DNA of 20,000 nucleotides from the NCBI GenBank assembly GCA_027923505.1, contig BROI01000001.1:2974719-2994718 (forward strand), in the 5' to 3' direction. The notes under the pieces are model-generated. The model saw only the letters and a program-made list of their open reading frames with translations. It ran no database searches and was not told the DNA's origin. The stretch comes from Mayamaea pseudoterrestris (Eukaryota). A program made the position numbers and the translations under genes. The stretch's first letter is position 1, and every line of letters starts with the position of its first letter. Positions 5,730 through 20,000 of this stretch are shown piece after piece.

Positions 5730-7279
5730 CTAGAACTGAACGTTCCACACGGTGGGATAACCAGCTGCAGTCAACGCATCATGCACGCGCTTGCCATGAT
5801 CCGCTCCTTGCAGTTCAACAACCACTTTAACTTGCACTTGGTCGACGTTCGTAAACAACCAACTTCTTTCGTGAAAGATGTCTGTAATTGATGCACCCTG
5901 CTCGCACAGCAAGTTGCAAAGCTTCGAAATTCCTCCTGGTCTATCCGAAACGGTGGACGAAAAGTTGACGAGACGTTTATCAGCCGCCAAACCACGGTCC
6001 AGGATGCGACCGAGGACTGTTGTGTCAATGTTTCCTCCACATAACGGCACCACGATATTCTTTCCCTTTAAATCCGCCCGATCCAACGCGCCACCAGGAA
6101 GCAATGCCGCCAAGCCGGCCGCGCCTCCCCCTTCGACGACAATCTTTTCATTCTCAATCAACCTTAACACCGCTAGCGAAACCTGCTGTTCCGATGCTAA
6201 TACACATTCATCAACGTAGTGACGAGCAACTTCGAACGCATGTGGCCCAACCTCTGGTACTGCCAATCCATCGGCAATAGTTGAAACAACATCAATCTTG
6301 ACAGGCCTGCCGGCCCGCAGCGCCGCTGTATAGGATGCGGCAAACTCTGGTTCCACTCCTATGACTTGAGTATCAGGTTTAAGCGTCTTGATTGCGCATG
6401 AAACTCCTGCAATCAATCCAGCGCCTCCAACAGGCACGATAACGGCATCGACGCAAGGAACATCCTCAATGATCTCCATTCCAATCGTTCCAGCGCCTGC
6501 TAAAATGGCAGGATCATCGTAGCCATTCACATAATCAAGCCCTTCCTTGGCGGCAAGTTGTTCCGCAAATTCTTTTGCTTCGCCGATATGAGCCCCATGT
6601 ATAATGATTCTAGCACCGAATCTCTGTTGAGAAAAAGCAAAGTGATGTGAATCATCCGCAATGGTCAGATTCGATTCGAGAGAGTCACAAATAAGCCACC
6701 AATTTGCACATAAATACTTACACGACATTTCTCAATTTTGGCCATGGGCGCAACCGTGGGCATGACGACGGTGCACGGAACGCCCAAATTTTTGCCGTGG
6801 TATGACAATCCGAGTGCATGATTTCCTGCCGACGCTGCAATCACTCCATTCAAGTGATTGCCTCGCTCTCGTCTCAACTGCAGTATCGCATTCCGAGCAC
6901 CCCGCTCCTTAAAAGATCCCGTAAATTGTCTGAATTCGGGTTTGAAAAAGATATTGGCACCGACGAGTTCGGAAATGAATGGGCTCAGTTCTGCTGTTGT
7001 TCGTTTCACTCCGCCCCGAATGGCAACTTCGGCGCGCGAAATGTCAGCAAAGGAAATGGGAAGATCCGTCAAATCCTTGTTGGATCTTGTTAATGGCGGT
7101 GGCGACGCAGGCGATGCTAAATCACTGTCATTTTCGTTTTCTGAATCTGAAGAAGTGGCAAAGTAACGCTGATGATGGCGCGTCGCAGAATAAATTGGTC
7201 GGCCGTGCGTCGCTGCGATGCTGACACAACATCGTGTTGCAGAACGAGATCTGGTATTCGTAACAAGGCTTGCAAACAT
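5730..7279 (-). CDS. PLP-dependent threonine/serine dehydratase (ammonia-lyase) with a single C-terminal ACT domain; exons 7279-6722 and 6623-5730, 483 aa
   Basis: PLP-lysine motif FKPEFRQFTGSFKERGA, AASAGNHA, GAGTIGME, VPVGGAGLIAG, LCGGNID and ACT motif SDRPGGISKL. Two ORFs are joined in frame by a GT-AG intron (KIEKCR|RFGARII). The Arg/Ser/Thr-rich, acid-free N-terminus resembles a mitochondrial presequence. Confidence 0.92.
6624..6721 (-). other. Spliceosomal intron (98 nt, phase 0) in the threonine dehydratase gene
   Basis: Donor GTAAGT, branch-like CTGAC, pyrimidine tract and CAACAG acceptor; removal restores the conserved reading frame. Confidence 0.9.
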
Positions 7280-7402
7280 ACCAATGGATCCTTATGGTCG
7301 GTGCAGGCCTGGATTCTATCAACAACTAAACTGAGAAGATGATCGCATCTTGCGAGGGAAATGGCCTCACTCGGCATTTCGACGGTCGTGGAACGAATGC
7401 GA

Positions 7403-16857: not shown

Positions 16858-19061
16858 TTAGGCTTTCTTCAATTTACCCGCTACTTGCCGTCCCAAGAAC
16901 CAAACAACCAGCATTTCCAGTATCTCGAGTTGGACTAATTGAATAAGGATTTCCACGCAGCCAGAGGCAAAACCGGAACCGTAAGCTGGATGCTCCAAAC
17001 GAAACAGTTTGACACCACATTTGGCTACGGTAAAAGTTCGCAGCAGCATAACCAGTTTACCCACGAGACCTCGTCCGTACGAGCGCGGCAGTGGATCTAG
17101 AATGAAACACAGCAAGATCCAGCAGATAAGCGGCGCAAGTAAAATTAGAAAATTGCGGAGTGAGGCAACGCCCTTGTGCCATATGACTGCAACGTCTCCA
17201 GCCAACAAGACGGGCAGTATCGGTAAAATTAAAGCAACAAGCACCGGTCGTCGATAGTACAGAGCCAGTAGATTGTTTTGTGTGTAGCGCGCTTTGGGAA
17301 GCTTAGGCAATGTCGATGCGAGTCTTGTATCTTGCTTTGGCGGACAAGGAAGCATTCCAATCATGATAAGACTCAGCGCGTACACAAGCAAGACGGCCGA
17401 TAATGCAATGACTTCGTTTAGTCCAATACCTATTTGTCGGGACTGTTTTATGGAAAAGATGATCTTGCTAGCGACAGTAACGACCACCAAGGTCAAAGGA
17501 ATGAATGAAATAGCAATCAAATTCATGGCTTCAAGGCGTTCTGCTGCCCATCGCGCAGCCACGAAACGATTCAAGACCCAGTGTACTATTTGAAAGATTC
17601 TGCTGGCTGTAAAGGAGAGCATCAGTATAGTGAACATCGACAAGCCATTCGAGTCGGACGCGGCCCAGCATAACAAGACAGCCAGCAACGGAAAGCAAAA
17701 CCACTGTATGAGGTGAATGCCTGTATCCGCGTGTACGGCCAAGACAGGAAGCGCGCAGTGCAAGGCCGCAATCAAGCAATAACAACTAACGAGCCATATC
17801 GCTTGGTGTGTCAATGCGGCTTCCATGAAAGTTGCCCTCCGACCAAAGGAAGTCTGCAATGGGTGAGGGAATGCAAGTAAATCCAGTGTTACAACAACTG
17901 CATGATAAAAGCGCCCTTACCCGCAATTGCTCTCCGTGTTTTCCCAAAGCTTCATTGTAATCTAGAAAAACTCCTTTGTAAAGATCTTTAAGATTGACAA
18001 TTCTTTCCGTCGACGACCTTTGATCATGGACAACCGCTAGCTGGTGGAGAATGACTCTGACGCCATCCAACAAGTTATGACACCAAACAATAGCTTGATG
18101 ATCCATTCCCAGTGATGGTGCACGTTTCGTGGTATCGTCCTTTGGTGTTGTCATGATATCGCTGGCTAATATGGACAATGAGGCCGCATGAGTTGTTGAT
18201 GCGTCGCATGATCGAGCTGGGATCATGGCGTCTGCGATCCCTCCTGAGACTGCCACCACGGATAAATTGTAGTCATCGCTCTCGTGTTGTATTCGTTGGT
18301 GTATTTCATATAGAGAACGCTCCCATGCCAGACTGGGATGTCCGTGGGGTGTTGCCAACGTGATCATGTTGCGCACAAACGGTCGAATTGTCGGATCAAT
18401 AATGCGCGCCAGCTCTGCCGCATATCCACCCATGCTGTGCGCCACCAAGACAATTTGACGAAATTTGCACGAGTCTATCAAGTGGTGCGTCACTTGTGAA
18501 AGGTATTCTGCCTGTGACCGGACAAATTCACCATGCAATCCAGTCGGTTCTTCCTGAAAATGAACGGCAAACACATCGTATACAAAGTCGTCAATGTCAG
18601 TCGCATTCCCCGTATATTTTAAAGACAGCAACGACTTTTGTGTTTGCGTAATTTGTTGCCGGGAAAGGTTTCGTCGCGTCATTTGAACGCCATGCGCTCC
18701 AAGGCTGCGAGCCTGTTGGTAGGAGCCGCCGTGACCAGGAACGTACAAGACGGCCGTCGTGGTGGATGCGTCATTGGGCAACGAGTAGCACCATGATGAT
18801 GAGTCAATTGATAAATTCTTCTCGAGGTTGATTATCAAGTTCTGATTCCGAGAATCCCGACGATCGACAAACTTGTAGAGTTGATAGTCGCTAGGAATGG
18901 ACGTCGACTGATTTGGTAGTGGAATCGGTATGAATACTCGATGCGACCAGGTCATGTCGCATTCGTCCTGCGTATACAAGAATCTATGGTTCAAATAGGC
19001 GCCATACGCCAAAGAAAGAAAACAAATGATGGAAGGGAGCCAGCAAATGAAACGAATCCAC
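16858..19061 (-). CDS. PGAP1: GPI inositol-deacylase PGAP1/BST1, 5' end interrupted by LTR retrotransposon; exons 19061-17921 and 17853-16858
   Basis: N-terminal hydrophobic anchor WIRFICWLPSIICFLSLAYGAYL, then ECDMTW, YVPGHGGSYQQARSLG, lipase box AHSMGG, ITLATPH, SGGIAD, DHQAIVWC, and a multi-pass membrane C-terminal exon. No in-frame ATG exists upstream of the anchor before the LTR. Confidence 0.85.
17854..17920 (-). other. Spliceosomal intron (67 nt, phase 0) in PGAP1
   Basis: GTAAGG donor and TTGCAG acceptor join the catalytic ORF and the membrane ORF in frame (GEQLR|TSFGRR). Confidence 0.8.
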
Positions 19062-19272
19062 TGTTGAGCATGGATGAGAACCCAAACCGAAGCGGCAGCG
19101 GTGACGTCACGAAGACGGTCACATTTAAGTAAGCGCGGTAAGCGGCAACCGAAGGAGTGGATCGAGGACGATCACTTCTTGGAGAAAATAAGTAAAGTGG
19201 TTTTATTGACTCTGTTCTGCTTAATCATTAGTGTCGCTTCAAGGGCGCGCAAGATATATTCTAGATCCAACA
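19062..19272 (+). repeat. Putative 5' LTR (211 bp)
   Basis: Begins TGTTG (19062-19066) and ends CAACA (19268-19272). Contains palindrome GTGACGTCAC (19101-19110), AT-rich ATTTAAGTAA (19123-19132) and initiator-like TCACTT (19172-19177). The second LTR copy is not visible. Confidence 0.72.
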
Positions 19273-19286
19273 TTTTCTCCAAGAAG
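19273..19286 (+). promoter_or_regulatory. Putative self-priming primer-binding site
   Basis: TTTTCTCCAAGAAG directly after the LTR-terminal CA is the exact reverse complement of CTTCTTGGAGAAAA (19175-19188); no TGG start as tRNA-3'-end priming would require. Confidence 0.68.
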
Positions 19287-19299
19287 CGAGTGAAAAGAC

Positions 19300-20000
19300 A
19301 TGTCTTCGACGAGCAATACTCCGACGACAGGAGCGGCGTCGAGCGGTGGAGGTGCACCTCCCGCTCCGCCAGCAAGCGAAGGAAACCGACGCAACCGTCA
19401 TTATCGTCGTGGGAATCGTGCTGGGAATCGTTCCGGGAATCAAGGCAATGGTAACAGACTCAACGGACCGAGTCGTGCGCCGAGTGGAAATTTCCAAGGA
19501 AGCGAGCCGACGCTCGCTGGATTCATCTACGACTATAACGGTTCGCGCGATCCCGATGGATTCATCCGTACGACGAACGAGATCATCACTTTCGTCGGGC
19601 GCTCCTACAAGAAATATACCAAGGAGCTGCTCAAGGGCATGCGCAACGTGGAACTGGAGATTCCTGACGAGCCTGCACGTCCAACGAAGGATGCCGACAC
19701 GACGGACTCGGACTGGTCCATAATGCTCGAGGAATACAAGGCCGACAAGAAAGAGCATGTCGAGCGCGTGCGTGTATACTCCGACTTCCTCGCTGGTCTC
19801 TACGCCGTGTTGCATGGACAATGCACGGAGCGTATGAAGGATCGTGTCAAGTCGCACGCCAAGTTCCGAGACGCCGAGGAGGACACGGACGGAATTAAGT
19901 TGCTGGCGATTATCAAGGAGATCTCGCATACGTACGAAGGGCGCTGCAAACTTGTGGATCAAGTCGTGGACATTCAAGCTGAGTTGTTCGGACGTACTGG
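19300..20000 (+). CDS. gag: Gag(-Pol) polyprotein N-terminus of the LTR retrotransposon (partial, 233 codons visible)
   Basis: Hand translation: MSSTSNTPTTGAASSGGGAPPAPPASEGNRRNRHYRRGNRAGNRSGNQ...FQGSEPTLAGFIYD...FIRTTNEIITFVGRSYK...LYAVLHGQCTERMKDRVKSHAKF...DGIKLLAIIKEI. No stop. The FxG..L.G.IYD, TT.EI...VG and GQC(T/S) patterns match my recollection of diatom copia-type gag proteins. Confidence 0.8.
   Translation, partial: MSSTSNTPTTGAASSGGGAPPAPPASEGNRRNRHYRRGNRAGNRSGNQGNGNRLNGPSRAPSGNFQGSEPTLAGFIYDYNGSRDPDGFIRTTNEIITFVGRSYKKYTKELLKGMRNVELEIPDEPARPTKDADTTDSDWSIMLEEYKADKKEHVERVRVYSDFLAGLYAVLHGQCTERMKDRVKSHAKFRDAEEDTDGIKLLAIIKEISHTYEGRCKLVDQVVDIQAELFGRT

Follow-up and report, generated by a model that had tools for sequence, protein, structure and literature searches.

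The window, a 20,000 nt stretch of nuclear eukaryotic DNA, closes with the 5′ portion of a diatom LTR retrotransposon, a young and multi-copy element of the Ty1/copia type. Directly behind its 5′ LTR, the element carries a 14 nt sequence that is the perfect reverse complement of a segment inside the same LTR. The pairing of these two segments at the position of the primer binding site (PBS) is almost certainly conserved at the RNA level among related elements. We consider Tf1-like self-priming of reverse transcription to be the best reading of this arrangement and a likely one. Such an architecture had been proposed in the initial annotation, and it is now supported by the position of the LTR border, the copia order of the protein domains and conserved compensatory pairing. 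The mechanism is already known from Tf1; what is apparently new is a large clade of diatom copia elements with a self-priming architecture.

Borders and coding capacity of the element

The 5′ LTR is 211 nt long (19062..19272, + strand, as are all features of the element given below) and belongs to the TG...CA type, beginning with TGTTG and ending with CAACA. Its end at 19272, where the initial annotation had placed it, and its start were both fixed by contigs of public runs. A contig of exactly 211 letters in run X7 is identical to 19062-19272 (0 differences). Runs X2, X5 and X7 hold one contig each that diverges from the window just before 19062 into a stretch ending in CAAAGGAGTG, and one X7 contig leaves the window sequence from 19273 into unrelated DNA. 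The CAAAGGAGTG stretch translates into ...SSKYYSAQRSV and corresponds to the end of the internal region, as this peptide lies in the C-terminal part of the 1615-aa polyprotein P0005. The first 233 residues of P0005 are identical to the product of the gag-pol ORF that starts at 19300 and, after 233 codons (19300..19998), runs off the window end. The base preceding 19062 is unlike that of the 3′ copy implied by P0005, the window frame reading L where P0005 has V. In the 3′ LTR copy, 19064..19132 would encode the last 22 codons of the polyprotein, LSMDENPNRSGSGDVTKTVTFK, followed by a TAA stop, and the translation matches the C-terminus of P0005. Thus, the polyprotein ORF crosses the polypurine tract (PPT) into the 3′ LTR, and T19062 marks the exact 5′ border.

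Pfam assigned a zf-CCHC knuckle to residues 364-379 of P0005 and RVT_2 (PF07727) to residues 1106-1329 (E = 3.4e-16), and the same RVT_2 match was obtained in 8 relatives. Neither an integrase nor an RNase H was found by Pfam in P0005 or these 8 relatives, rve being without a match at E up to 5. When a profile of the alignment A1, which comprises 34 relatives of P0005, was compared with PDB sequences, only zinc knuckles and the copia capsid were matched and no integrase. The integrase was therefore sought by structure modelling in the relative L028 (L028:6274-7203), in a region that is homologous to approximately residues 586-896 of P0005 and was aligned with 25 other loci. The AlphaFold model of this region (md44d39959517) had a pLDDT of 82.3, and in a Foldseek comparison with PDB, all matches listed were retroviral integrases (best E = 3e-9). 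According to the model, the homologue of P0005 residues ~586-896 is predicted to fold as the catalytic and C-terminal domains of a retroviral integrase. Three residues that are invariant in the family alignment, D659, D716 and E754 of P0005, may constitute the DDE triad.

The domains are thus arranged as CCHC, the integrase fold (in L028) and RVT_2 at 1106-1329. This order of gag, integrase and reverse transcriptase is that of Ty1/copia, in agreement with the superfamily named in the initial annotation. Membership in the Tf1/sushi clade of Ty3/gypsy was considered and rejected, given the RVT_2-type reverse transcriptase and the location of the integrase upstream of it, which is not the gypsy order. 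A scan of virus contigs with P0005 returned no relative.

The remainder of the window, whose GC content is ~49%, contains ordinary genes, namely P450-reductase-like, ABC transporter, DAG-kinase-like and PGAP1-like genes. Other members of the 90% cluster of P0005 are named Mayamaea pseudoterrestris, a diatom.

Paired arms at the LTR border

The segments 19175..19188 (CTTCTTGGAGAAAA) and 19273..19286 (TTTTCTCCAAGAAG) are perfect 14 nt reverse complements of each other, and T19189:A19272 is a possible 15th pair. The 5′ arm, which is the proposed self-primer, directly follows a TCA at 19172..19174. The 3′ arm, which is the putative PBS, takes up the first 14 nt behind the LTR, and 13 nt separate it from the gag ATG. 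This complementarity, on which the initial annotation was built, was verified both by direct reading and by an inverted-repeat search. The search extended the arms to 18 nt (19172-19189 and 19272-19289, 94%, 82 nt apart) and returned this repeat as the sole one in 18900-19400 (seed 7). If the complement of the 14-mer is allowed to occur anywhere in the 211 nt LTR, the chance expectation is ~7e-7.

In the minimum-free-energy fold of 19174-19299 (-31.8 kcal/mol), the 15-bp helix forms the closing stem. The 82 nt between the 15 nt arms (19190..19271), representing the rest of R and U5, form the fold-back loop and contain a local hairpin at ~19231-19250 in the same fold. The whole leader folds modestly better than shuffled sequences (z = -1.88), 8 of 200 shuffles folding as well. 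The initial annotation had further pointed to a 7-bp pairing of 19234..19240 with 19283..19289 that could compete with the long helix. This pairing exists but is at chance level, since 85 of 560 shuffled loops yield a pairing of at least 7 bp, and we leave it outside the proposed mechanism; in the relatives, the competing pairing is no longer than in shuffles. Rfam gave no match in 18900-19500 at E up to 1. A scan for bacterial-type promoters and terminators, which is unsuited to a eukaryote, gave nothing relevant.

P0005 has >700 relatives of similar length with 40-60% identity, a few of which carry diatom names (Nitzschia, Fragilaria). Using the A1 alignment, we scanned JGI/ENA metagenome contigs and obtained 79 loci. 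Many of these contigs represent two LTRs collapsed into one, so that the C-terminus of pol is followed by the LTR and then by gag. In the collapsed contigs, the LTR always starts inside the codons of a near-invariant RSVL peptide, between AGGAGTG and TGTTG. As these are the PPT and the first bases of the LTR, coding sequence and cis signals of the element overlap at the PPT/LTR start.

For a survey of LTR-gag junctions, we took the window and the 28 loci in which the gag start was recognisable and preceded by at least 150 nt (n = 29). L038, L045, L071 and L078 were left out for too little upstream sequence, and L020 and L042 because their contigs have no ATG. Up to 1000 nt before each ATG were searched for the longest perfect inverted repeat whose loop measured 30-250 nt. 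In 25 of the 29 junction sequences, a perfect inverted repeat was found, with arms of 14-16 nt and 82-105 nt of loop between them. In all 25, the 3′ arm starts at or one base inside the terminal CAACA/TAACA of the LTR, and the 5′ arm lies directly after YCA. Control coding windows from the same loci (76 windows of 1000 nt) gave longest repeats of 7-12 nt, with 12 nt reached once.

The junctions outside this pattern are of several kinds. L063 retains 14 pairs, two of which are G.U. In L008, the arms are present with a 1-nt bulge. The 5′ LTR of L075 lacks its 5′ part on the contig; a matching arm is found after GCTCA in the 3′ LTR, which is followed by flanking sequence and no PBS. No signature was found in L043. 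The L063 copy (L063:283-423) is an older one, with LTRs 92.9% alike, and its G.U pairs arose from C-to-T changes in the 5′ arm, which fits pairing at the RNA level.

When all 79 loci were scanned without reference to gag, the signature was present in 37 loci and the window, with 28 distinct 5′ arms among them. The signature is lacking in L052/L053, a defective copy that has lost most of its 5′ LTR. The spacing of the arms over all these matches is 51-150 nt, and the LTRs of the signature set are 211-536 nt long. L054, the locus nearest to the window, has the arm CTTCTTGGAGTAAA and the PBS TTTACTCCAAGAAG, and differs from the window by one compensatory change, GAGTAAA/TTTACTC versus GAGAAAA/TTTTCTC. 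In the 38 rows, the 5′ arm nearly always lies directly after YCA or starts with its A; the exceptions seen are L019, which has TTA, and L028, where the arm begins one base later.

Covariation was assessed in an alignment of 26 leaders (A2), consisting of the 25 with a perfect arm of at least 14 nt and L063. RNAalifold predicted a 14-bp helix and no other, with double changes in 14 of the 14 pairs. The leaders of A2 were chosen for carrying the repeat, so the fraction of paired cells is partly circular: it was 95.1%, while shuffles gave 60.9% (0 of 500 reaching the observed value) and sliding the partner by 1-3 positions gave 44-50%. The compensatory counts and the slid controls are informative, and cells changed on both sides numbered 118 in the alignment, 34.6 in shuffles and 19-36 with the partner slid by 1-3. 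Most of the unpaired cells belong to L009 and L019, which MAFFT had shifted at the 5′ end. The complementarity is thus kept in related elements, as the initial annotation would have it, with a compensatory change at all 14 pairs. We regard conserved RNA-level pairing at the PBS position as virtually certain.

Other parts of the leader are more loosely conserved or confined to some relatives. RNAalifold found no consensus pairs for a U5 hairpin in the family, and a U5 helix drawn by eye was 64.4% paired compared with 53.6% in shuffles. Inspection by eye of the 70 nt upstream of the arm revealed no conserved TATA-like motif, nor anything conserved beyond (G)CTCA. In most relatives, a YTRGTTTA-like motif (TTGGTTTA, CTGGTTTAC, CTAGTTTAC) occurs within ~1-10 nt after the 5′ arm. 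Its counterpart in the window is GTGGTTTTA at 19197-19205, and the motif may correspond to the end of R or to the region of polyadenylation. L012, L015, L029, L034, L040 and L048 make up one subfamily with the common arm CTCTTTTTACGAAA and 180-460 nt of additional sequence separating the PBS from the gag ATG. Within this additional sequence lies a small ORF, e.g. M..QDEI..IV.QLQ.LQ.QE..LL.RL, that looks coiled-coil-like by eye.

A candidate self-priming mechanism and its alternatives

The minus-strand primer of an LTR element must sit at the U5 border. In the signature-bearing relatives, this position is invariably occupied by a sequence complementary to part of the element's own LTR. The stretch 19273-19286 contains no TGG, in keeping with the earlier statement that a TGG-type tRNA PBS is missing, and a tRNA gene scan of the window returned 0 genes. 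Because at least 28 PBS sequences each match their own LTR, neither a tRNA nor a tRNA half can be the common primer. Only 1-3 nt lie between the arm and the gag ATG in L065, L007, L032, L059 and L025 (13 nt in the window), which leaves no place for a second primer site between the LTR and gag. The missing TGG, the 28 covarying PBSs and the lack of room for a second site indirectly suggest that the element has no tRNA-complementary PBS.

We infer a transcript start in the LTR, intramolecular pairing, an RNase H cut and use of the duplex as primer, which would be connected as follows. The genomic RNA would most likely start at the conserved TCA, at ~19174/19175, so that U3 would extend from the LTR start to the base before (19062..19173). 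The assignment of the start to A19174 or C19175 derives from the conservation of YCA in the relatives, and a YCA before the arm fits the initiator consensus for a Pol II start at that A or the next base. The first 14-15 nt of the RNA would fold back over the 82 nt R/U5 loop and pair with 19273-19286, where other LTR elements bind a tRNA. By analogy with Tf1, the RNase H of the element would cut the RNA at the inner end of the duplex, near 19188-19190, and from the freed 3′-OH, minus-strand strong-stop DNA would be synthesised through U5 and R. If the progeny PBS is copied off the primer, in the manner of retroviral and Tf1 replication, each round would reset it to the 5′ arm. Such a reset would explain why pairing is near-universally perfect while the sequences drift freely between lineages. 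Should the primer be retained, the LTR border would not reveal the exact site of the cut (19188/19189); the Tf1 primer is reportedly not removed.

Covariation proves pairing, not priming, and the inverted repeat might be a conserved structure, of RNA or DNA, that serves some other purpose (e.g. packaging, dimerisation, control of gag translation or recognition of the LTR end) in an element that uses another primer. A precedent may be seen in the fungal GalEa copia elements, which have a hairpin at the PBS position whose role is described as unknown (PMC5445492). We consider such a function in place of priming improbable, because in every element the 3′ arm coincides exactly with the PBS position, starting with the first base behind the LTR, and because a gag ATG within 1-3 nt in several relatives leaves no room for another primer site. 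Furthermore, perfect pairing combined with free drift is what is expected of a PBS copied off its primer, whereas a purely structural helix should tolerate more G.U pairs and mismatches, and only L063 and L008 depart. Priming in trans, by the 5′ arm of a second RNA or by a short capped 5′ fragment annealed to the PBS of another genome, e.g. a co-packaged partner, has a similarly low probability in our estimate. The covariation fits cis and trans alike. The fairly constant distance between the arms (82-105 nt in 25 elements, 51-150 nt overall) speaks, if weakly, for cis, as it suggests a constrained loop that would be relevant only there.

Priming at 19273-19286 by a host tRNA, half-tRNA or tRNA fragment would have parallels in several copia lineages, such as the half-tRNA-Met used for Drosophila copia, Osser and Bryco (PMC6317226). 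In the diatom elements, this is very improbable in view of the missing TGG and of at least 28 PBSs that each match their own LTR and whose variation would not be followed by any set of tRNAs. Chance complementarity in an AT-rich leader, in whose favor only the low complexity of some relatives' arms can be cited, has already been refuted by the ~7e-7 expectation, by the control windows, in which no repeat exceeded 12 nt, and by shuffled and slid controls far below the observed pairing.

Relation to known elements and genomic setting

To our knowledge, Tf1 and Tf2 are the only elements for which experiments have demonstrated self-primed reverse transcription. Self-priming has also been proposed for the Tf1/sushi group of gypsy elements and for Tcn1. 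Tf1 is said to require a U5 stem-loop; its counterpart is not clearly conserved in the diatom element family. Like Tf1 and Tf2 of S. pombe, which belong to Tf1/sushi, the diatom element has no recognisable tRNA PBS, its post-LTR sequence complements the presumed start of its own RNA, and the fold-back would run across U5. It differs from them in superfamily, having RVT_2 and an integrase upstream of the reverse transcriptase. The duplex, known here from sequence alone, is 14-15 bp as against 11 in Tf1, whose RNA anneals to the PBS with its initial 11 bases and is cleaved by RNase H between bases 11 and 12 (PMC7175516).

Among copia elements, self-priming has been predicted for the plant TAR lineage, including Houba and Osr-1, and the prediction was likewise made from sequence (PMC6317226). 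The hosts of TAR are land plants. The GalEa elements of fungi resemble the diatom element as copia elements without a tRNA PBS and with a conserved structure right after the 5′ LTR, termed the Conserved Hairpin Site, in place of the PBS; GalEa and CoDi-like diatom elements are both placed on branch 1 of Copia (PMC5445492). However, the GalEa site is described as a local palindrome and hairpin downstream of the LTR for which the authors report no complement in U5 or R (PMC5445492), whereas the partner of the diatom PBS is inside the LTR, 82 nt away. The half-tRNA-primed elements Drosophila copia, Osser, Bryco and Bianca also have a PBS without the usual TGG of the tRNA 3′ end (PMC6317226). In contrast to the diatom PBS, which is variable and matches its own LTR, theirs is constant and matches an internal tRNA segment.

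The CoDi groups of diatom copia elements, including Blackbeard and Surcouf, are described with LTRs of 153-844 bp (Maumus et al., 2009; PMC2806351). Our elements are likewise diatom Ty1/copia elements with short LTRs (211-536 nt); the support for a possible CoDi grouping consists of the diatom host name and the relatives named Nitzschia and Fragilaria. In its main text, the CoDi-defining paper (PMC2806351) makes no mention of tRNA, priming or a primer binding site. A full-text literature search found no paper linking self-priming with diatom retrotransposons.

If the elements are self-primed, they would add a second, unrelated and apparently very large clade, of copia type, in one of the most abundant algal groups. 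The comparative evidence is unusually clean, with ~30 different primer/PBS pairs that are nearly all perfectly matched. It suggests a rule for annotation: the PPT AGGAGTG is followed by TGTTG, further on by YCA and 14 nt, and finally by CAACA and the complement of those 14 nt. LTR finders keyed to tRNA PBSs will miss or misjudge such elements. The clade also offers a natural experiment on the co-evolution of PBS and primer, as well as a testable system in transformable diatoms, and it raises the question of whether silencing based on tRNA fragments can act on elements of this kind.

A more far-reaching proposal is that self-priming is ancestral and universal in a large, widespread clade of diatom Ty1/copia elements. 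Taken together with GalEa, on the same deep branch of Copia, this would imply that tRNA primers were abandoned early in that branch or were never in use there. We think the proposal rather unlikely. It would fit the view of Benachenhou et al., 2013 (PMC3601003), according to which the earliest LTR retrotransposons used a 5′ hairpin for priming. If it held, the elements would escape a host defence that uses tRNA fragments against tRNA-type PBSs.

Tf1 insertions are often found in promoter regions. The PGAP1-like ORF of the window (17786-19012, minus strand) is divergent from the element, and the LTR starts 50 nt upstream of its start codon (19012-19062). The insertion site is likely a promoter region, a single case from which we draw no inference. 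Run X6 yielded two contigs with different variant sets for the flank (18737-19025). One covers 18740-19087, thus reaching into the LTR, with 17 differences, and the other ends at 19059; they may stem from two haplotypes or strains that differ in the presence of the insertion. In runs X6 and X7 (window 19062-20000), the word depth of the element contigs was ~1000-47000, compared with 3-37 for the flanking gene. In X7, the LTR contig had a depth of 3200, lower than both junction contigs (~6000-7300), a pattern that would fit RNA from heavy transcription better than DNA.
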